From Candidatus Nealsonbacteria bacterium (lineage in GTDB: Bacteria > Patescibacteriota > Minisyncoccia > Minisyncoccales > MHMH01): DNA of 64,000 nt. The notes beneath the pieces were generated by a model that saw only the letters and a program-made list of their open reading frames with translations, searched no databases and had not been told where the DNA came from. This document shows positions 225 to 56,369 of this stretch, one piece after another; position 1 is the stretch's first letter; the number at the start of each line of letters is the position of its first letter. The translations under genes were made by a program, and so were the position numbers. The stretch spans positions 13,197-77,196 of the forward strand of contig JACPGX010000001.1 in the NCBI GenBank assembly GCA_016188865.1, written 5' to 3'.

Positions 225-397
225 ATAATCTGTTCGATTCTTTAATCGTTAATTAATCTTTCTGATAATCGACCTTTAGCTTTACTAACAATACATTATA
301 CTCCTATTAAAAAACTTGTCAAGTGGAACGTAATATTTGCTTTCGTAAATAAACGTTCCAACAGCGTTTAAATTTTCTATGAAAATTCATTACGCTG

Positions 398-470
398 TGC
401 GCGCGGAAGGAATCGGACCTTCTACCTCCTCATTATCAGTGAGGCGTTCTAACCGGTGAACTACGCGCGC
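398..470 (-). tRNA. tRNA-Ile(GAU)
   Basis: Minus strand folds as GCGCGCG-TA-GTTC-ACCGGTTA-GAAC-G-CCTCA-CTGATAA-TGAGG-AGGTA-GAAGG-TCCGATT-CCTTC-CGCGCGC-A; 73 nt, no encoded CCA. Confidence 0.9.
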
Positions 471-699: not shown

Positions 700-1139
700 C
701 ATGTTTCCCCCTATATCGCTATAAGGCATGGACTATATCTTCATCCTCTTTTTTAACGTCTTAATCTTTCTCGGGTGCCAAGATCCTATTATTGTCACAA
801 ATTTCTCTTGCGAATGCGCTAAAATAAACATTCGCCAATAATCAGGGTCTATCTTTCTGCTGGGGTTATAAATCTTTCCGGTATTGGAACTGAAAGTTTC
901 ATCATGAAGTGCTCCAAGAAGATAAGCTTTAATTTCTTTTTTACTAAGAGGAGCTTGGCGTGTAGTCTCTGAGGGATCCCGCTTCGCGGGACTTCCCTGC
1001 TGATTTTCTGCACTGAAAACATTCTTACGCATATTAATTTATTTTAACATACGTAGTTTCAGATACACAGATGTTCCAGCAAATAGCCAAGTTTTTACCG
1101 AAAATTACTTTTCGGAGTCGCAACGTGCAGTTTGCACCG
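700..1139 (-). mobile_element. 16S insertion/intron 2 (~440 nt) between GAAGTCGT and AACAAGG
   Basis: Conserved 16S sequence is interrupted exactly between ..GAAGTCGT (ends 1140) and AACAAGG.. (starts 699); contains 99-aa ORF. Confidence 0.75.
733..1032 (-). CDS. intron-borne ORF, possibly a degenerate LAGLIDADG-like endonuclease remnant
   Basis: ORF track 99 aa; only weak motif KAYLLGALHDETF resembling a LAGLIDADG helix; lies wholly in 16S insertion 2. Confidence 0.35.
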   Translation of the reverse strand: MRKNVFSAENQQGSPAKRDPSETTRQAPLSKKEIKAYLLGALHDETFSSNTGKIYNPSRKIDPDYWRMFILAHSQEKFVTIIGSWHPRKIKTLKKRMKI

Positions 1140-1220
1140 ACGACTTCGTCCCTCTCACCGAGCTTAGCTTGATACCCCTTGCAGGGTGCTTTGGCTACTC
1201 CCGGCTCGCTTGACGTGACG

Positions 1221-2095
1221 GATTGAGATCATTGAGTCTATGTCTCGTTCCCAGTTCGATTTTCTATCGAACTCTTAATTTTCCATATTAAGACTGAACG
1301 AACGGATTTCCCGTATTCAGCGAGTCCAAAAAATATGCATTTCTTTTTTCCATTGCTTAATCTGTTCAAGTCCATTTTTTGTTTGATGCCTTTTTTTTAT
1401 CACAGCATCCACGATTTTCTTAAATAATCTGAAGTCGTGAATCTTATTACCTTCTAAAGGATTGGCATCGAAAAATGGTATGATGATTTCTCGAATCTCT
1501 TGAAGTTGTGTTGTTTCGTAGCGGTAGCAATTATGATGATTCGGACGACGATCTTTTTGGAAAGAGATGCGTCCTACCCCGAAGAATTGTTTCACCTTTT
1601 TTAAAAGAGGCAAATCATCTTCCCGTAGTTTTACATAATAATGGCATTCCACTCGATAATTCTTTGCACCATGCTTTTTACTAGGCGGACGGATATAGGC
1701 AGTAAAACTGCCCTCCCCGTCGGTTAGACCAACAATGTAATTTTTCGAAATCATACTTTTTGGTTAGGCCCTTCCCCGTCACAACTTCTTAACGAAGATG
1801 TTGGCGGGTACTATGGCGCTAGCTGACTTCCTAGAACTGTAAGGACTCTATTTCTAGGATATCCCCGGGTAATTTATTCTGCTCTTCCGAGCATCCTATA
1901 AGAAAAATTGATGGACTTCCTTCTGACCGCCCGCAGAAGTCGTTCAATTTCTTTATGATATCATAGGCTGCTCTTTGCCTCAAGCCCTCTGCCCTGAACC
2001 CTTACGAGTCAGGACTGCTATTTTTTTGGCTACCCTGTTTTGCAGGGACAGGATTTTAACCTGTTAGTAGAATAAACCGCCGGGCACAGTTGTTT
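1221..2095 (-). mobile_element. 16S insertion/intron 1 (~875 nt) in the decoding-centre (~1400) region, carries homing endonuclease gene
   Basis: 16S reads ..GTACTCACCGCC (ends 2096) then resumes CGTCACGTCAAG at 1220; boundary ambiguous by 1 nt. Confidence 0.8.
1317..1754 (-). CDS. LAGLIDADG homing endonuclease (single-motif)
   Basis: 145 aa, N-terminal YIVGLTDGEGSF motif; located inside 16S insertion 1. Confidence 0.85.
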   Translation of the reverse strand: MISKNYIVGLTDGEGSFTAYIRPPSKKHGAKNYRVECHYYVKLREDDLPLLKKVKQFFGVGRISFQKDRRPNHHNCYRYETTQLQEIREIIIPFFDANPLEGNKIHDFRLFKKIVDAVIKKRHQTKNGLEQIKQWKKEMHIFWTR

Positions 2096-3468
2096 GGCGG
2101 TGAGTACAAGATTCAGGAACGTATTCATCGCCACATAGCTGATTGGCGATTACTAGCGATTCCGGCTTCATGAGGTCGAGTTTCAGACCTCAATCTGAAC
2201 TGGGGAGCCGTTTGATGCGATTAGCTCCAGCTTGCGCTTTAGCAACGCATTGTCGGCTCCATTGTATCATGTGTGCGGCCCAGGATGTCAAAGGGCCACG
2301 CTGATCTGGCGTCATCCCCACCTTCCTCCTGGTTGTCCCAGGCAGTCTCCTGTGACAGATAAAACACAGGATAGGGGTTGCGCATGTTATCCCATTTAAG
2401 GATGCGTCTCAAGATACATGCTGACGACGACCGTGCAGCACCTGCCACGCCGTCCTTGTGAGAAGTCCCAATTTTCATCGGGATTTCGTCGTGGTTTCTA
2501 ACCCTGGTAAGGTTCTTCGTTTGTTGTCGAATTAAGCCACATGATCCACCGCTTGTGTGAATCCCCGTCTATTCCTTTGAGTTTTAGTGTTGCCACCGTA
2601 CTTCCCAGGCGGGACACTTAACGCGTTAGCTTCGCCACTTGAAGGGTCGACACTTCAAATAGCCAGTGTCCATAGTTTACAGCGTGGACTACAAGGGTAT
2701 CTAATCCTTATCGCTCCCCACGCTTTCGTCCCTCAGTGTCAGGATCGTCCCAGCTGACTGCCTTCGCTTTTGGTGTTCCGCACGATATCAACGGATTTCA
2801 CCCCTACACCGTGCGTTCCGTCAGCCTCTAACGTCCTCGATTCTGCCAGTTTTTTCTGCAGCTCCCAGGTTGAGCCCGAGAGATTTAACAGAAAACTTAA
2901 CAAAAAACCTACGGACCCTTTACGCCCAATAAATCCGGATAACGCTCGAGGTCTCTGTATTACCGCTGCTGCTGGCACAGAGTTAGCAACCTCTTATTCC
3001 ACCAGTACAATCAGCCTTGCGGCTTTCTCCTGGTGAAAAGTAGTTTACAAACCTAAGTCCTTCTTCCTACACGCGGCGTCGCTCGATCAGGGTTTCCCCC
3101 ATTGTCGAATATTCTCGACTGCTGCCTCCCGTAGGAGTATGGGCCATGTCGCAGTCCCATTGTTGGGGGTCGCGCTCTCACGCCCCCTACCCGTCATAGC
3201 CTTGGTGGGCCATTACCTCACCAACTAGCTGATAGGCCGCAGACCCATCCCATTCCCCCTAAGCCTTACGGCCGGGTTTACCCTTGCGGGACTATCGGGA
3301 ATTAACCAACCTTTCGGCTGGTTGTGCCCGTGAATGGGGTTGGTATCTACGTGTTACTAACCCATTTGCCGGTTGCCCTTGCGGGCCCCCATGACTTGCA
3401 TGCCTTATCCACGCCGCCAGCGTTCATCCTGAGCTAGGATCAAACTCTCAAAAAAAACTTAATTTTTT

Positions 3469-4488: not shown

Positions 4489-5889
4489 TTACGGAGTTTT
4501 TCTCCATGTGCGCTCTCCCACCGCGATGAAAACCAGCCAAACAGGCAGGCAAACCAGAAAAGTGACAAAAAGAATCCAAAATTTCTGCTTTCCAGTCGGC
4601 TCAATTTCACCGGAAAGATAATTAAAATCCTTCATGCTGACTCTATTAAATTTTGTCTGCGGCTTATCGAGTCCCCAGATGATTCTTTCAAGCGCTCCGC
4701 CATTATGCACTCCCCGTATTTTAATCTTTTTTGAGCCATCGTCTTGCGCTGCCGTATAAAATTCTCCATTAACTGTTCCGATTACTGCATCCGGGGTCAA
4801 GGGAACATTCTCCCAAGGAAAATTACGTATCGCCACTATCATTTGTTCATTGCCTAGAGGCATTCCGGTAACCGCCCTCACCCATGCAACAGAATCGCCG
4901 TTTTTTGTCCCAACTACGACAATAATGCTATTTTTACTGATAGCATCGTCGCCAAAAACATCTTTGTTATGCCAATAAGCTTTCAAAGCAAGCAAGTAAG
5001 CGTCGGGATTGGCAGATATAGTTTCGTTCTGGACAATAACCAAATGGAGATCGCCTTGGAGTTCCATTCCTAAAGCTGCGTTGAAATACATTAAGTTCCT
5101 CTGCCAATCTCCGGCATCTTTTGGCGTATAACCGATAAACTGCGCCTTATCAGCATAGTACATATCAACAATATTGCTCTTTACCGGTGGAAGAAGTTTT
5201 AATGCATTGAACCGCTCAATTTCCGAAGAATATTGTTTCAAAATTGTCTGATCGCTTGCCAAAAGATAATTCTGATAAGTCATCCTCTTTGTGACTGGCC
5301 CGGGTTTTCCCGCGTCAAGCCGCGCTTTTACGGCCGACCAAAAAGTTGGAAAACCGCTTCCGGCTCTGTTAATCGCGTATTGAGGTATCGGTTCATATGA
5401 ACGCCAGCGATGCGCTTGCGGATTTTCCGGAAAACGATACGAATCGATAGAGTAAAACCCCAAAGTCGTATCCACGCCGAATGTCCACTCTTCGTTAGCA
5501 TATGGACAATTATGGTATCGCGTTTCAGCGCGATACTGGGTCGTGCAGTTATTTTTACTATCGCATACAGTATACGGCACCATTACCACATATGGATCGC
5601 AGGAATATGTGTTTCGACAGGGGCCGTCGCGAGAACAAGGAATCACCGTCCAAACTGCTTCTTTTTCCCAGCCATTCCAATACTCATTAAAAGAAAGATT
5701 ATTGGATTTGGCAATTTTCCATCCTATGGCTGTTACCGACGGAACAAGCGCTATACTGATAACAAGTATTCCGATGAGATATTCTTTCCATGTAATATTG
5801 TTATGATTTTTCGTTAAATCAAAAACAAATTTCAAAATAAGGCCCGCTAATCCTGTGGCAATAATAGAAAAAATCATCAAGGAAATCAT
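4489..5889 (-). CDS. Cys-rich integral membrane protein of unknown function
   Basis: 466 aa; two N-terminal and one C-terminal TM segments, Cys-rich ectodomain; GGAGGTG SD; co-oriented with 3818-4447. Confidence 0.7.
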   Translation of the reverse strand: MISLMIFSIIATGLAGLILKFVFDLTKNHNNITWKEYLIGILVISIALVPSVTAIGWKIAKSNNLSFNEYWNGWEKEAVWTVIPCSRDGPCRNTYSCDPYVVMVPYTVCDSKNNCTTQYRAETRYHNCPYANEEWTFGVDTTLGFYSIDSYRFPENPQAHRWRSYEPIPQYAINRAGSGFPTFWSAVKARLDAGKPGPVTKRMTYQNYLLASDQTILKQYSSEIERFNALKLLPPVKSNIVDMYYADKAQFIGYTPKDAGDWQRNLMYFNAALGMELQGDLHLVIVQNETISANPDAYLLALKAYWHNKDVFGDDAISKNSIIVVVGTKNGDSVAWVRAVTGMPLGNEQMIVAIRNFPWENVPLTPDAVIGTVNGEFYTAAQDDGSKKIKIRGVHNGGALERIIWGLDKPQTKFNRVSMKDFNYLSGEIEPTGKQKFWILFVTFLVCLPVWLVFIAVGERTWRKTP

Positions 5890-5956
5890 AAAACACCTCC
5901 GCTGCAGAATATTGTTAAATAGCTAAATTAGTATAACAAATTTGTTTATTTTGTCA

Positions 5957-6137
5957 AGCCGGAGAGAGGATTTGAACCCCCGACCTTCGCTTTACAAAAG
6001 CGTTGCCCCGCCTGCCAAAGCCTGAGCCGATGGTCGGATTTGAACCGACGACCTACTGTTTACAAAACAGTTGCTCTACCACTGAGCTACATCGGCTTAG
6101 GCTATGGCGGGCAGGTCTACCGCTGAGCTACTCCGGC
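5957..6137 (-). pseudogene. outer tRNA-Thr(UGU)-like gene interrupted in the D arm by a 109-nt insertion containing an intact tRNA-Thr
   Basis: GCCGGAG-TA-GCTC-AGCGGTA-GA [insertion 6115-6007] GC-A-ACGCT-TTTGTAA-AGCGA-AGGTC-GGGGG-TTCAAAT-CCTCT-CTCCGGC-T; acceptor halves 6137-6131 and 5964-5958 are complementary. Confidence 0.6.
6025..6096 (-). tRNA. tRNA-Thr(UGU)
   Basis: GCCGATG-TA-GCTC-AGTGGTA-GAGC-A-ACTGT-TTTGTAA-ACAGT-AGGTC-GTCGG-TTCAAAT-CCGAC-CATCGGC-T, 72 nt. Confidence 0.9.
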
Positions 6138-6141
6138 AGCA

Positions 6142-6495
6142 TCACAACTGCTTTCCGTCTTTGACCTTTTTGAGTTTGTCCCAATATTCGCCGTTGCTAT
6201 GGCCGTTGTGGCCGTTTCTTCTTTGGCGCAGCCACGTCAGCCAGTTGCCTGTTTTACTTTCTGTTTTAAGGGTTAAAACCCTAACCCTGGAAAGTATTTT
6301 TTCCAAATAAAGTTCGTAATCGAACTTTTGAGATCCTGGGATGCTTTTAACGCCTTTTTTGAGTATTGAAATAATTGGCCACTTCGGGAAATCATCTCCG
6401 GGCAGTTCAAGCAAGCTGGGTATTTTCTTAAATAAAATAAAACCTATGCCCAGCAAACTAAAAAATGAAAGTAATGCTAAAATAATTTCTAACAT
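6142..6495 (-). CDS. small membrane protein, unknown function
   Basis: 117 aa, N-terminal TM, overlaps tsf stop by 7 nt. Confidence 0.6.
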   Translation of the reverse strand: MLEIILALLSFFSLLGIGFILFKKIPSLLELPGDDFPKWPIISILKKGVKSIPGSQKFDYELYLEKILSRVRVLTLKTESKTGNWLTWLRQRRNGHNGHSNGEYWDKLKKVKDGKQL

Positions 6496-6956
6496 TCGTT
6501 CGAATATTTTATAAGAGAATATCTAATATATCTTTTAATAGAGATATTTTCGCCAATTTTTGCAATGTTGTCATCTACTAATTCCCTGATTTTTTTGGAT
6601 TCGTCTTTAATCCACGGCTGTTCTGAAAGCGGTACGGCCTCATCGCTAAATCCAGCTATTTGCAAACATAATTCATGAGATAAATTCTGGAAGTCGGCTG
6701 ATCTGGCCACAAAATCTGTTTCGCAATTTAATTCTAAAAGCACGCCGACTTTCTTATTGGGATGGATATAGCTGTCTATAATTCCCTGATGGGTTTCTCT
6801 TGCTTTTTTCTTTTCAGCAAGTTCTTTGCCCCATTTTTTAAGAATCTCTTTGGCTTTATTAAAATCTCCACTAGCTTCTTCAAGCGCCTTTTTGCATTCA
6901 CCAACAGAAACTTCAGTTTCTTCTCTTAATTTTTTAATTGTATCAATGCTGACCAT
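6489..6956 (-). CDS. tsf: elongation factor Ts (short form)
   Basis: 155 aa; UBA-like N-terminus IKKLREETEVSVGECKKALEEASGDFNKAKEIL and ..VGVLLELNCETDFVARS motif; downstream of rpsB. Confidence 0.85.
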   Translation of the reverse strand: MVSIDTIKKLREETEVSVGECKKALEEASGDFNKAKEILKKWGKELAEKKKARETHQGIIDSYIHPNKKVGVLLELNCETDFVARSADFQNLSHELCLQIAGFSDEAVPLSEQPWIKDESKKIRELVDDNIAKIGENISIKRYIRYSLIKYSNEC

Positions 6957-6962
6957 ATTTTA

Positions 6963-7661
6963 TTATTTATTTTGTTTTTTGGGCTTTGTCCCTAAAACCG
7001 CTTCTTTTACTTTTTCTAATATATATCTCACCGAGCTGGCAGCGTCATCATTAGCCGGAATAAAATAATCTGCCTGAGAGGGGTCAATATTCGTATCGGA
7101 AATACCGATAACCGTAATTCCCTTGGCCTTTGCTTCCCTAACCGCTAATTTATCCTTTTTCATGTCGCATACAAAAATGACATCGGGCAGCTGCTGCAAA
7201 TTCTTGATGCCGCTGAATTTTTTCTCCAAATCCTGAAGCTCTTTATCGAAGTTGGCCCGTTCTTTTTTGGTGTATTTTTCCAGCTCGCCAGTTGCTTTTT
7301 TGTTTTCTATATCTTTATAGTATTCAATTCTCTTAAGAATATTATGAAAATTAGTAAATGTGCCGCCCAGCCACCTCTCGGAAACATAAGGCAAGCCGCA
7401 TTCTTCGGCTGTTTTTTTCACTAAATCTTTAATTTGAATTTTTGTCCCTACCAGTAAAATCATTTTATTGTCAGAAATCATCTTGACAATTAAATCTAAA
7501 ACTTCCTGTAGTTTTTCTTTTGTTTTATCCAAATCAAAAATATGAACGCCGTTTCTTGCGCCGAAAATATACGGTTTCATTTTGGGGTGAATTTTTGATG
7601 TTTTATGCCCAAAATACAAACCCGCTTGCGCCATTTGTTCTGTATCTAGTGTTTTGGCCAT
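6963..7661 (-). CDS. rpsB: 30S ribosomal protein S2
   Basis: ..AGLYFGHKTSKIHPKMKPYIFGARNGVHIFDL..; ORF-track start 7679 is TTG; ATG at 7661 sits 8 nt after a -10 box. Confidence 0.9.
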   Translation of the reverse strand: MAKTLDTEQMAQAGLYFGHKTSKIHPKMKPYIFGARNGVHIFDLDKTKEKLQEVLDLIVKMISDNKMILLVGTKIQIKDLVKKTAEECGLPYVSERWLGGTFTNFHNILKRIEYYKDIENKKATGELEKYTKKERANFDKELQDLEKKFSGIKNLQQLPDVIFVCDMKKDKLAVREAKAKGITVIGISDTNIDPSQADYFIPANDDAASSVRYILEKVKEAVLGTKPKKQNK

Positions 7662-7669
7662 CAATTTTG

Positions 7670-7698
7670 AATATACCAAAAACTCAACAAGTAGTCAA
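7670..7698 (-). promoter_or_regulatory. rpsB promoter, leaderless geometry
   Basis: Minus strand TTGACT-17-TATATT then 8 nt to ATG(7661); no SD. Confidence 0.55.
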
Positions 7699-7712
7699 TA
7701 ATGTGATATAAT
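7684..7712 (+). promoter_or_regulatory. pyrH-like promoter, leaderless geometry
   Basis: TCAACA-17-TATAAT(7707-7712) then 7 nt to TTG start at 7720. Confidence 0.45.
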
Positions 7713-7719
7713 CAAATCA

Positions 7720-8412
7720 TTGAAGAAAAGAAATCCAACCATAGTTATAAGCTTGGGCGGGTCGATTATTGTGCCGGGGGAAATACAAGCAGAATTTATT
7801 AAAAATTTCAGGGATTTTATTTTTAAATTTTTGAAAAGGGGTTATAGGTTTATAATCGTAACTGGCGGAGGAAGCATTGCCAGGAATTATATCAAAGCTG
7901 CTTCGGAAATTACCAAAACTTCAGACGAAGATAAGGACTGGCTGGGAATTCACGCCACAAAGATAAATGCCCAGCTTATCAAAACTGTTTTCAAAAAGGT
8001 CGCTTATCCAACTATTTTAAGCAACCCGTTGAAGAAAATTAACGAAAGAAAATATCGGCTTTTTATCGCTTCCGGCTGGAAGCCGGGCTGGTCAACCGAC
8101 TACATTACGGTTTTGCTGGCTAAAAGATTTAAAGCTGATAAAATCATCAATGCTTCGAATATTGATTACGTCTACGATAAAAATCCTTTAACAGAAAAAA
8201 ATGCGCGGCCAATTAAAAAAATGGGCTGGAACGATTACCGCAAAATAATCGGCTCTAAATGGAAGCCGGGCATGAAGGCTCCCATTGATCCTGTTGCCGC
8301 TAAATTAGCTTCCAAACTAAAAATGGGCATTATTGTCGCAAGGGGCACAAATTTAAAAAATTTAGGAAACATCTTGACAAATAAAAAATTTAAAGGCACA
8401 ATGATCACATGA
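7720..8412 (+). CDS. pyrH: amino-acid-kinase family protein, archaeal-type UMP kinase-like
   Basis: 230 aa; [11 protein letters not shown] .. [14 protein letters not shown] motifs; TTG start. Confidence 0.7.
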
Positions 8413-8636
8413 AAAAAGATATACACCCAAAATACTATTCCAATGCCAGAGTGCAGTGCGCTTGCGGAAATACTTTTACCGTTGGCTCGACAAAAGAGCT
8501 GATTGAAACGGAAATCTGCTCTGCCTGCCATCCTCTTTATACCGGCAAAGAGAAACTGATTGATACGATGGGCAGAGTGGAAAAATTCCGAAAGAGATTA
8601 GCCAAAGCTCAGAATGTCAAACATAGAAAGCATTAA
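8409..8636 (+). CDS. rpmE: 50S ribosomal protein L31
   Basis: [14 protein letters not shown]....T......E.CS.CHP.YTGK; ATGA overlap with upstream gene. Confidence 0.9.
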
Positions 8637-9939: not shown

Positions 9940-9970
9940 AAAAATACAGGGGTTGCGCCCCTGTATTTTT
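9940..9970. repeat. hairpin at 3' flank of Y1-transposase-like gene 1
   Basis: aaaaatacagggg ttgcg cccctgtattttt, 13-bp stem. Confidence 0.8.
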
Positions 9971-9977
9971 ACTCTAA

Positions 9978-10700
9978 TTACTCTAAAACTAGGTCTTTAA
10001 TTTTTTCAAAATCCTTCTTTAATTCTGTTTTATATAAAATCCGGTCTTCAATAGATTTTTTAATCCCATCTGAACCGCCAAAGAATTCCATTACAAAATC
10101 TCTTTTTGTAACCGATGGAAAATTTGGCATTCCAATACAATCTAAGTAGTTCGACCAACGATAAGATTCTAAAAATTGAATGGCTCTTTTAATATATTTC
10201 ACTCCCACCTCTTTCCATTTTTTCTCTATTAATTCAACTGGATTAGTGAAAATATAACAAATTAAAGCCAGTAGCTGTCTATCGTTTTTTACGTGAACAG
10301 CCTTAAAACGACCCTGGAATAAAGAACCCATTCTTTTTCTATTATGTTTTAGATTAAAGTACCCAACATAACTATCGGCTAACTTCTTCATAAAAAGAGA
10401 AATGCCACCATCGACCAATTGTCTTAAAACTAAATGGTAATGATTTGGCATTAAACAAAAGGTAATAACTTCTACTAACATTTCCCTATCAGATACACGG
10501 GTTGCACCCGTGTATTTTCTTTCTTTTCTTTCAGATACCCTATCTCGCATTTTAATTAATTTTTTGTCGTTTAGCTCGTAAAGACAAAAGACAAACCTGA
10601 AATAATCAGAAACTTGTTGAAAAATACTTCTTTTTTCTACCCCTCTGTTAAAAATATGGTAAAGTTGTCCGGCAATAAATTGTGGTCGTTGTGATGGCAT
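9978..10700 (-). CDS. HUH/Y1 transposase-like protein (IS200/IS605 TnpA / RayT, COG1943-like), copy 1
   Basis: 240 aa; HUH motif LMPNHYHLVL, Tyr motif CYIFTNPV. Confidence 0.8.
   Translation of the reverse strand: MPSQRPQFIAGQLYHIFNRGVEKRSIFQQVSDYFRFVFCLYELNDKKLIKMRDRVSERKERKYTGATRVSDREMLVEVITFCLMPNHYHLVLRQLVDGGISLFMKKLADSYVGYFNLKHNRKRMGSLFQGRFKAVHVKNDRQLLALICYIFTNPVELIEKKWKEVGVKYIKRAIQFLESYRWSNYLDCIGMPNFPSVTKRDFVMEFFGGSDGIKKSIEDRILYKTELKKDFEKIKDLVLE
10493..10515. repeat. intragenic hairpin related to the flanking hairpins of copy 1
   Basis: atacacggg ttgca cccgtgtat; encodes ..YTGATRVS.. in the linker before the HUH motif. Confidence 0.75.
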
Positions 10701-10731
10701 ATTACTAAACTCACTATAATTATATCAGATT

Positions 10732-10758
10732 AAATACACGGGTGTAATCCGTGTATTT
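10732..10758. repeat. hairpin at 5' flank of Y1-transposase-like gene 1
   Basis: aaatacacgg gtgtaat ccgtgtattt, 10-bp stem. Confidence 0.8.
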
Positions 10759-10763
10759 TTAAC

Positions 10764-55727: not shown

Positions 55728-55776
55728 GAAGGATAAAACCAGAGTTGACACCATTTTTACCATCGGCCGCAGAAAT

Positions 55777-55804
55777 AAATACACCGGTTGAACCGGTGTA
55801 TTTT
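55777..55804. terminator. palindromic AAATAC..GTATTT hairpin downstream of the tRNA-Lys locus
   Basis: aaatacaccggtt g aaccggtgtattt, 13-bp stem. Confidence 0.55.
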
Positions 55805-55837
55805 GCAATGGGCCTGCCGGGACTCGAACCCGGAACC

Positions 55838-55889
55838 ATCACCTTAAAAGGTTTATCCGCCTTTGGCGGAGTGTTGCTCCCTGCCTGCC
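55838..55889 (-). repeat. 52-nt direct repeat, copy 1 (intact anticodon loop CTTTTAA)
   Basis: 51/52 identical to 56250-56301. Confidence 0.85.
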
Positions 55890-55913
55890 CGACAGGCGGG
55901 ACTACTAAGATTA

Positions 55914-55986
55914 TGGGTCTGGCGCGAATCGAACGCGCAACCTCTTCCTTAAAAGGGAATTGCTCTACCAATTGAGCTACAGACCC
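55914..55986 (-). tRNA. tRNA-Lys(UUU)
   Basis: GGGTCTG-TA-GCTC-AATTGGTA-GAGC-A-ATTCC-CTTTTAA-GGAAG-AGGTT-GCGCG-TTCGATT-CGCGC-CAGACCC-A. Confidence 0.9.
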
Positions 55987-55997
55987 ATGATACTAAT

Positions 55998-56246
55998 TTA
56001 TTTTTGTATAAACTTCTTTAAAAACTCTCTGCCTATTCCGCTTTTTAAATACTTTTCTCGTTTTCTGGCCACATCGCTATTTTCTACTTTTTCGCAATAT
56101 ATTAAATCAAATGGACCACGATTTTTTGTAGAAGGAGTTGCTTTACTGCCATGATTATGTTGATTTATTCTACGGGTTAAATTATTGGTGATGCCAGTAT
56201 AACGCTTTTTATCTTTTTTACTTTTAATTACATAAACAAAATACAT
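55998..56246 (-). CDS. small GIY-YIG (URI-domain) nuclease
   Basis: 82 aa; YFVYVIKS..KRYTGITNNLTRRINQH..; ATG 5 nt after AAGGTGAT, which is the 3' anticodon-stem of the interrupted tRNA. Confidence 0.8.
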   Translation of the reverse strand: MYFVYVIKSKKDKKRYTGITNNLTRRINQHNHGSKATPSTKNRGPFDLIYCEKVENSDVARKREKYLKSGIGREFLKKFIQK

Positions 56247-56249
56247 AAT

Positions 56250-56301
56250 ATCACCTTAAAGGGTTTATCCGCCTTTGGCGGAGTGTTGCTCCCTGCCTGC
56301 C
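56250..56301 (-). repeat. 52-nt direct repeat, copy 2 (loop mutated to CCTTTAA)
   Basis: Single difference from copy 1 falls on U33 of the anticodon loop. Confidence 0.85.
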
Positions 56302-56369
56302 GGCAGACAAGGTACCAATTGACCCGCCTATCGGCGGGCAGGGCTACAGGCCCCTATACAAAAAACTTT

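Follow-up and report, generated by a model that had tools for sequence, protein, structure and literature searches.

A hairpin-ended cassette carrying its own tRNA-Thr inside a tRNA-Thr(UGU) gene of Candidatus Nealsonbacteria: a probable case of gene disruption with built-in replacement

The 64,000-nucleotide stretch analysed here (the window) is part of the chromosome of Candidatus Nealsonbacteria, a member of the Candidate Phyla Radiation (CPR), and contains an intact tRNA-Thr(UGU) gene that lies between the two halves of a second tRNA-Thr(UGU) gene. We consider the 109-nucleotide (nt) insertion responsible for this arrangement, at 6115-6007 on the minus strand, to be probably (roughly 0.7) a non-autonomous member of a family of hairpin-ended, tRNA-targeting DNA cassettes, which disrupts the resident tRNA-Thr gene and supplies a replacement for it. 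The evidence that carries this reading comes from the ends common to such insertions, from the anticodon that inner and outer copies have in common and from the decay of the outer copies among relatives of the locus.

Anatomy and reality of the nested tRNA-Thr locus

On the native sequence, ARAGORN reports the inner tRNA-Thr(tgt) alone, at 6024-6096(-), and Rfam likewise sees the inner tRNA alone. When 6115-6007 is deleted and 6137-6116 is joined to 6006-5957, ARAGORN calls a 72-nt tRNA-Thr(tgt), a cloverleaf whose acceptor stem has 7 base pairs (bp) and whose anticodon loop has 7 nt, with D, anticodon and T arms present; the joined outer tRNA passes at 115% of the default threshold and the inner one at 120%. 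The Rfam tRNA model gave 26 bits on the outer 3' part in place, a value that refers to this part alone and unjoined and compares with a gathering score of 29. The first-pass annotation had described an intact tRNA-Thr(UGU) inside a tRNA-Thr(UGU)-like gene of the same isoacceptor, and both statements are borne out, as are its coordinates and sequences for the locus (Table 1). The inner tRNA-Thr is presumed to be the functional gene.

Table 1 Features of the window discussed in the text (positions count from the first letter of the window)
Feature	Position	Strand	Basis or remark
Promoter, sigma-70-like, TTGACA-16-TATACT, TG-extended	5930..5957	-	11/12 matches; begins at the last base of the outer tRNA-Thr
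Outer tRNA-Thr(UGU), 3' part GCAACGCTTTTGTAAAGCGAAGGTCGGGGGTTCAAATCCTCTCTCCGGCT, G24 to discriminator	5957..6006	-	ARAGORN on joined halves
Insertion right arm CAGGCTTTGGCAGGCGGG, 18 nt	6007..6024	-	Pairs with left arm
Inner intact tRNA-Thr(UGU), 72 nt	6025..6096	-	ARAGORN; Rfam 79.4 bits
Insertion left arm CCTGCCCGCCATAGCCTAA, 19 nt	6097..6115	-	First 10 nt are the invariant end motif
Outer tRNA-Thr(UGU), 5' part GCCGGAGTAGCTCAGCGGTAGA, positions 1-23	6116..6137	-	ARAGORN tRNA-Thr(tgt) once joined to 6006-5957
Lys locus: outer tRNA-Lys halves enclosing stalk-loop, repeat, GIY-YIG open reading frame and intact tRNA-Lys	55809..56353	-	Sequence reading
Inner intact tRNA-Lys(UUU)	55914..55986	-	ARAGORN, Rfam
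GIY-YIG catalytic domain protein, 82 amino acids (UPF0213/YhbQ-like)	55998..56246	-	Pfam PF01541, E = 1e-18
RAYT-like IS200-family tyrosine transposase gene	9978..10700	-	Pfam Y1_Tnp E = 4e-7; NCBIfam REP_Tyr_transpos E = 2e-9, below cutoff

The 109-nt insertion is composed of the two arms and the inner tRNA-Thr, and it falls between A23 and G24, within the 3' strand of the outer D stem, so that the outer 5' part comprises the 5' strand of the acceptor stem, the 5' strand of the D stem, the D loop and G22 A23. Both junctions (GGTAGA/CCTGCC and GGCGGG/GCAACG) are flush, excision gives back the exact tRNA, and a target-site duplication is absent from both. Inner and outer tRNA-Thr are identical at 57 of 72 positions (79%) and their differences are mostly compensatory stem changes; the inner gene is therefore no recent local duplicate and the two are diverged homologues. 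Immediately upstream of the nested gene no strong promoter was seen, and it is probably transcribed together with rpsB-tsf-ORF117, while the promoter that begins at its far end would serve the downstream open reading frame (ORF) of 466 amino acids (aa) at 5889-4489.

The two arms pair with each other into a stalk. This pairing had been noticed in the first reading of the locus, at a length of about 11 bp, which proved too short: the pairing starts flush at the junction and extends over 17 positions, with 15 pairs including one G-U and with mismatches at position 7 (C.A) and position 12 (T.T). The minimum-free-energy fold of 5957-6137 (-85.1 kcal/mol, z = -6.1) contains the acceptor, anticodon and T arms of the outer tRNA and, on top of the stalk, the inner cloverleaf. 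In the family alignment of stalks, 85% of cells are paired and 7 of the 15 pairs have double-sided changes, with a covariation score of 0.177 as compared with 0.087 in shuffles, a value reached by none of 500 shuffles; judged by this comparison of related sequences, the structure of the stalk is real. No variation occurs in its basal 10 positions, a U.G and a C.A among them, and this fixed base points to specific recognition by some further factor. A count of G.U versus A.C in the variable part of the stalk, aimed at separating RNA-level from DNA-level selection, gave 20 versus 1 when based on RNAfold and about 15 versus 9 in an ungapped register, and thus differs with the counting method.

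An assembly artefact is effectively refuted as the source of the nested locus, because the left junction, which is present in the Logan contig L003, was assembled independently in three samples. The Logan contigs L001, L002 and L003, from the same organism, all break within the nested region, at the inner anticodon and in the outer variable/T region, which suggests that nested loci are fragmented in short-read assemblies, by k-mers common to the tRNAs or by variation between strains; such breaks may conceal nested tRNA loci in many metagenome-assembled genomes (MAGs). A phage origin of the window was also considered and rejected, as a megablast search of 4500-8500 against phages matched tRNA-Thr fragments only and the window is CPR chromosome.

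A family of hairpin-ended insertions in tRNA genes

Two scans were carried out for comparable arrangements. The first was flank-agnostic, covered one genome per species and looked for a D arm cut after GGTAGA with a second D arm within 10-40 nt; it retrieved at least 119 loci, overwhelmingly from Patescibacteria MAGs, with one closed chromosome and one single-cell genome besides, and among these listed matches a complete inner tRNA was found in 101, while the outer tRNA could be reconstructed in 51 by deleting arm, tRNA and arm. The second, in metagenomes and with the D-arm junction pattern GCTCAGNGGTAGACCTGCC, retrieved at least 120 loci, almost all from Patescibacteria. Taken together, more than 200 analogous loci occur in independent assemblies, so the Thr arrangement is not a product of chance, and the recurrent process that had been proposed from the window now has strong support. 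The same junction pattern was without match in the 2.9 million viral contigs of IMG/VR, and a phage vector for the cassettes was set aside on this ground.

The insertions have invariant ends, CCTGCCCGCC...GGCAGGCGGG, which form terminal inverted repeats and are identical in 25 aligned cassettes. The motif CCTGCCCGCC opens the insertion at the Thr locus, at the Lys locus of the same window (directly after GGGCCTGTAGC) and at more than 25 other loci. Insertions with these ends occupy the D-stem site 23/24 in L039, L081, L095, L140, L143, L153, L175, L216, L229 and others, and the same ends are found flush at three tRNA positions, namely 23/24, 35/36 (in the anticodon) and 37/38.

Nesting can go considerably deeper than in the window. 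In about 520 nt of a Saccharibacteria MAG (L021, CAZPDF010000011.1), tRNA-Thr(UGU) forms a five-level nest, each level being split after TTTTG (35/36), with acceptor halves that match level by level, 3' halves in reverse order and partly decayed, and identical 5' halves at levels 3 and 5. Two further loci, L107 and L229, are also multi-level and mix insertion sites. Roles can moreover be exchanged: the outer tRNA type of the Thr locus (GCCGGAG...CCTCTCTCCGGCT) is the inner one in L095, where the outer anticodon arm resembles the inner anticodon arm of the window locus. In L008, L013 and L058 the 5' part of a tRNA is partially duplicated in tandem, with no flanks.

Other arm families were observed alongside. 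One of them, in tRNA-Val, has the arms (T)CACCCCGTTAGAT...ATCTAACGGGGCA(A/G)G (L010, L016, L056, L096, L103, L109, L113, L121, L125); another, in tRNA-Phe, has CCCCG...CGGGGCAGG followed by the conserved non-tRNA block GCTGAAAATTTTACCCC (L030, L046, L047, L057, L062, L068). A TCCCG...CGGGA/TAAAC family has its left junction in the D arm and its right junction at 35/36, with outer positions of about 24-35 missing (L011, L043, L105, L026, L059, L101, L112; L013, L072, L080, L082, L120), and it extends outside CPR to Ignavibacteria, Bacteroidota and Chlorobi-type MAGs. About 15 matches of the first scan show CPR-style nests under the label 'uncultured Gammaproteobacteria' (TPA binchicken/SRP co-assembly bins); these labels may be unreliable, or the elements may extend beyond CPR. 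In IMG/VR, including giant-virus bins, viral contigs have tRNAs that lie in the anticodon loop of another tRNA or follow a 5' fragment of a tRNA (L261/L270, L263/L271, L264/L266/L278, L258/L259/L267/L268/L274/L276/L277); they are without a GC-rich stalk, and some of the inner tRNAs have an encoded CCA.

Many tRNAs share the D-arm sequence that is targeted, yet the cargo matches the anticodon of its host, in 9 of 10 cases of the metagenome set and in about 25 cases of the reconstructed set from the first scan. Such a rule would follow if only complementing cassettes survived, and splicing predicts no rule of this kind. In all 40 non-redundant metagenome cases the inner tRNA is strong (the mean highest ARAGORN threshold passed is 118% of default), while the outer tRNA survives a single excision in 10 of the 40; the remaining outer copies have lost the 3' half, have non-matching halves or contain extra hairpins or insertions. 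The universal C56 is lost (C56>T), together with stem mismatches, in the outer copies of L065 (an ortholog of L081) and L039. Outer copies are not maintained across the relatives.

Hairpins without cargo occupy the same site (23/24) in about 55 cases, only about one of which is within an otherwise intact tRNA; the others are in dead fragments, with a live tRNA, usually of the same type, 10-290 nt downstream where the contig allows. They comprise 21 copies of a bare 20-nt palindrome, CCTGCCTGCCGGCAGGCAGG, and stalk-plus-tetraloop forms of 16-78 nt, and they often stand beside a small GIY-YIG nuclease gene like that of the Lys locus. Empty hairpins of the same family were also observed at 21/22 and, within the T loop, at 56/57 or 53/54 (L012, L052, L075, L117, L151, L055), the one at 21/22 in L055 being situated in an initiator-tRNA-like fragment; several arms of one dead tRNA can each receive a hairpin.

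The sister locus in the window adds a nuclease gene to this picture. Within the Lys locus, an empty 51-nt stalk-loop at 56342-56292 holds in its loop the missing D-loop sequence TCAATTGGTA, and a 52-nt direct repeat (56301-56250 and 55889-55838; GGCAGGCAGGGAGCAAC...GGTGAT) flanks the GIY-YIG ORF and the inner tRNA-Lys; the outer anticodon stem has a small hairpin, TCCGCCAAAGGCGGA, and then TAAAC. The protein consists of the catalytic domain only, without a DNA-binding domain, and its closest solved relatives are UPF0213 proteins (PDB 1zg2, 1ywl). About 300 homologues of this protein were retrieved, most of them from CPR and most on short contigs. Among 40 GIY-YIG ORFs in the retrieved loci, at least 27 are followed by a complete tRNA on the same strand, -18 to +67 nt from the stop codon (types Lys, Asn, Phe, fMet, His, Leu, Tyr, Cys, Gly, Thr, Ala and Trp), and many are preceded by a 5' fragment of the same tRNA with GC-rich hairpins at 23/24. 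A gene of a homing nuclease family is thus physically associated with the insertion family, and by its sequence and company the 82-aa protein is a candidate trans-acting nuclease for it. The simplest reading of the GIY-YIG loci, from their layout, is insertion at 23/24 as well, in which case the cassette would be composed of a hairpin, a short remnant of the anticodon arm, the ORF and a fresh 5' part of a tRNA, with which an intact tRNA is rebuilt downstream. A uniform pair of arms around these ORFs was considered and rejected, as it is present at the Lys locus of the window only and elsewhere a closed hairpin precedes the ORF. The Thr cassette contains no ORF, in line with the earlier remark that a nuclease gene is present at the Lys locus and absent here, and would therefore depend on such a nuclease acting in trans.

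Proposed mechanism and competing explanations

On the reading that we favour, a resident tRNA-Thr(UGU) gene would have been destroyed when the cassette entered it, flush, between A23 and G24; as the cassette carries a complete tRNA-Thr of the same decoding identity, the cell would lose nothing. The inner tRNA-Thr would then be the working gene and the outer pieces a still well-preserved relic. In the transcript the GC-rich arms would clamp into the 17-position stalk and insulate the inner tRNA from outer halves that resemble it closely, so that it could be freed by RNase P and RNase Z, a 3' endonuclease. Spread most likely takes place by repair of a DNA break, namely one in an uninterrupted tRNA gene that would be repaired from a cassette-bearing copy (homing), and the break itself would be the work of small free-standing GIY-YIG nucleases acting in trans, of which the Lys locus encodes one; as an alternative step, a structure-specific nuclease might handle the hairpin ends. 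Only cassettes that bring a matching tRNA would survive, each delivered tRNA would be a fresh target, which would explain the Russian-doll nesting, and later loss of redundant cargo would leave stalks without a tRNA and, in the end, nothing but the palindrome. That the cassette spreads by homing, that the stalk has this role and that the outer Thr copy does not function are points which we infer.

Several observations weigh against this account. The outer halves at the Thr locus still make a good tRNA, which passes the 115% threshold with all invariant nucleotides kept and has two G-U pairs in the T stem as its sole weakness, and the supposed non-function of this particular copy is argued from the decay seen in relatives. 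The candidate nuclease is of 82 aa and without a DNA-binding domain; the D-arm sequence of the presumed target is present in the inner tRNAs as well, which poses a problem of self-immunity; and the invariant 10-position base of the stalk, with its U.G and C.A, points to a further recognition factor, which could act on RNA. A pair of filled and empty alleles was not recovered for the Thr locus in a synteny search with the 466-aa neighbour, whose closest relatives are only 62% identical and have lost the synteny; L006 alone keeps tsf followed by an un-nested tRNA-Thr(UGU) and is too distant to count as an allele.

The strongest competitor has the same outcome of disruption plus replacement and is a live variant of the model, though a distinctly less probable one: the cassette would be a miniature transposon, whose 10-bp terminal inverted repeats or single-stranded DNA hairpin would be recognised by a transposase, a recombinase or a structure-specific nuclease, with no homology-directed repair of a break. 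Ends that stay invariant whatever the host tRNA or insertion site agree well with it, as does the graded series from stalk with tRNA through stalk with tetraloop to the bare 20-nt palindrome, which is typical of internally deleted derivatives; the occurrence of hairpins at 21/22 and 56/57 and the membership of the GIY-YIG protein in the Slx1/YhbQ-like structure-specific group can be added. Against these stand the absence of a target-site duplication, the lack of any consistently linked transposase and the position of the GIY-YIG ORFs, which lie downstream of a closed hairpin instead of being enclosed by an arm pair. The one transposase candidate in the window, the RAYT-like gene, is flanked by AATACA(C/G)GG...CC(G/C)TGTATTT hairpins (~10730-10760 and 9940-9975), and a link of REP/RAYT elements to the cassettes was rejected because these hairpins are of a different family from the CCTGCC stalks. 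Stalks that appeared flipped, once taken as proof of DNA inversion, were dropped as an argument, as their ends are equally well two phases, 4 nt apart, of an 8-nt periodic motif, GCCTGCCC.

An unlikely explanation is that the insertion is a protein-dependent bacterial tRNA intron, in which an endonuclease would recognise the base of the stalk in the transcript and cut both strands flush, a ligase such as RtcB would rejoin the outer halves, and RNase P and Z would free the inner tRNA, so that one gene would yield two tRNA-Thr(UGU). Precise flush boundaries whose removal restores a perfect tRNA, stalk covariation, and a stalk base that keeps its non-Watson-Crick positions at three different tRNA positions are all in its favour, and some outer tRNAs keep perfect exons despite three insertions, as in L151. 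Self-splicing introns of Patescibacteria, too, are inserted at 35/36 and 37/38 (PMC13011429). What speaks against it is that 30 of the 40 outer copies are not tRNAs after excision, that the conserved C56 is lost in L039 and L065, and that splicing leaves the same-anticodon rule without explanation. Moreover, the cargo-less members of the family are almost confined to dead fragments beside a live copy, whereas with introns interrupted genes in sole copy should be common. The comparative data thus make a spliced and ligated outer tRNA unlikely as the general outcome, with the qualification that the Thr copy itself has intact exons. Still a little less probable is the more specific proposal that the stalk is a recognition element for RNA-level excision and ligation in Patescibacteria, which would make it a third kind of bacterial intron, one dependent on protein; if it were true, each transcript would give two mature tRNA-Thr(UGU), cassettes could spread between tRNAs as RNA, and bacterial RtcB-type ligases would gain a natural substrate.

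Known intron classes do not account for the insertion. The bulge-helix-bulge geometry, in which a 4-bp helix between the intron 5' end and the beginning of exon 2 separates two 3-nt bulges, is absent: the CCTGCC at its start has no complement in the GCAACG with which exon 2 starts, and the helix joins the two ends of the insertion, flush; introns of this kind are described in the literature as absent from bacteria. For introns of group I or group II, no Rfam intron family matched 5850-6250 at E <= 1, and arms with a total of 37 nt cannot be a ribozyme. Finally, a one-off accident, by local duplication and illegitimate recombination between tRNA-Thr copies or by an assembly chimera, might be suspected from the flankless tandem 5' duplications and from the contig breaks inside the nested region, but it is very improbable given that inner and outer copies are only 79% identical, that the ends are common to the Lys locus and more than 25 other genomes, that the left junction recurs in three samples and that the analogous loci include a closed chromosome and a single-cell genome.

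Some neighbouring features of the window were recorded in passing. A hairpin similar to those flanking the RAYT-like gene follows the 3' end of the outer tRNA-Lys (~55775-55805). A group I intron match of 74.6 bits (709-1151, minus strand) is located between the 16S gene (2048-3455, minus strand) and tRNA-Ile (397-470, minus strand); the ~900 nt between the 16S 3' end and this intron carry no assigned feature, and the 16S gene spans the full Rfam model in only 1408 nt.

Relation to known systems and implications

Integrative elements that target tRNA genes interrupt the gene and restore it with their own partial tRNA copy; they depend on integrases at att sites, duplicate the 3' part alone and are kilobases long. 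The Thr cassette, in contrast, brings a whole tRNA on a stalk, measures ~110 nt and is without an integrase. Another parallel is SegB of phage T4, a full-length site-specific enzyme with a DNA-binding region, which is not known to leave a nested tRNA and has no hairpin ends, whereas the Lys-locus protein of the window is an 82-aa catalytic domain only. The likeness is that of a GIY-YIG gene among the tRNA genes of a cluster with intron-less spread by break repair, and SegB can duplicate tRNA segments (PMC2330249; PMC13096335).

The closest precedent is found in Lak megaphages, whose tRNA-Thr(TGT) has an 'enigmatic intron' with a possible tRNA gene of its own (Devoto et al. 2019, PMC6784885), and it was the sole one in the searchable literature on nested, split or disrupted tRNAs in CPR. 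As at the Thr locus, a tRNA-like sequence is situated within a tRNA-Thr(UGU) gene and is neither group I nor group II, and its presence or absence varies between genomes; unlike the Thr locus, it concerns a phage, an insertion in the anticodon loop and a single curiosity, and a conserved stalk, a nuclease link, a nesting series and decay of outer copies are not described in that report (PMC6784885). The viral nested tRNAs mentioned above may be the same phenomenon as the Lak case.

Archaeal bulge-helix-bulge introns, split tRNAs and transposed introns (Thermoproteales, Nanoarchaeum; see PMC3978253, PMC4033280) likewise include related short insertions at many non-canonical positions, among them the D arm, sometimes several per gene, with halves held by a helix. 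In those systems EndA cuts at two bulges 4 bp apart, whereas the Thr locus has a flush helix, is bacterial and has relatives whose outer genes decay. Surveys of tRNA introns in Patescibacteria report group I introns only, including some at position 35/36 (PMC13011429). These have the phylum, the gene class and the sites 35/36 and 37/38 in common with the cassettes and differ in being self-splicing ribozymes of more than 200 nt (PMC13011429), as against 37 nt of cassette arms.

In CPR rRNA genes, uncharacterised short insertions and non-intron insertions encoding GIY-YIG proteins have been reported, with tRNAs not mentioned (PMC11270868). They resemble the cassettes in being non-intron, in their location in structural-RNA genes, where they sit at the top or the base of stem-loops, and in the GIY-YIG genes that some of them carry (PMC11270868). 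A further likeness is that of rRNA intervening sequences, where RNase III removes a stalk-forming insertion without re-ligation. The rRNA insertions differ in that they are without a replacement gene, and while rRNA stays functional in fragments, a split at 23/24 or 35/36 would disable a tRNA. Overall, the architecture and the scale of the cassettes appear to be undescribed, and the cassettes appear to be kin to homing-type selfish DNA and to target-restoring tRNA elements.

For annotation, the consequence is that standard tRNA finders report the inner gene only and miss the relics, and that hairpin-bearing tRNA fragments may be taken for introns or pseudogenes. If the proposed reading is true, a third harmless way for selfish DNA into an essential gene would exist beside self-splicing introns and inteins, in which the element carries a spare copy of the gene that it breaks. 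This would account for the nested (Russian-doll) tRNA loci, for the halves of tRNA genes and for the GC-rich hairpins found across CPR genomes, would tie the abundant ~80-aa GIY-YIG (UPF0213-like) genes of CPR, which are without an assigned function, to a tRNA-gene target and would offer a parallel with the short insertions in CPR rRNA genes (PMC11270868). It would further imply a fast turnover and horizontal replacement of tRNA alleles in CPR, which generally hold few spare tRNA genes.

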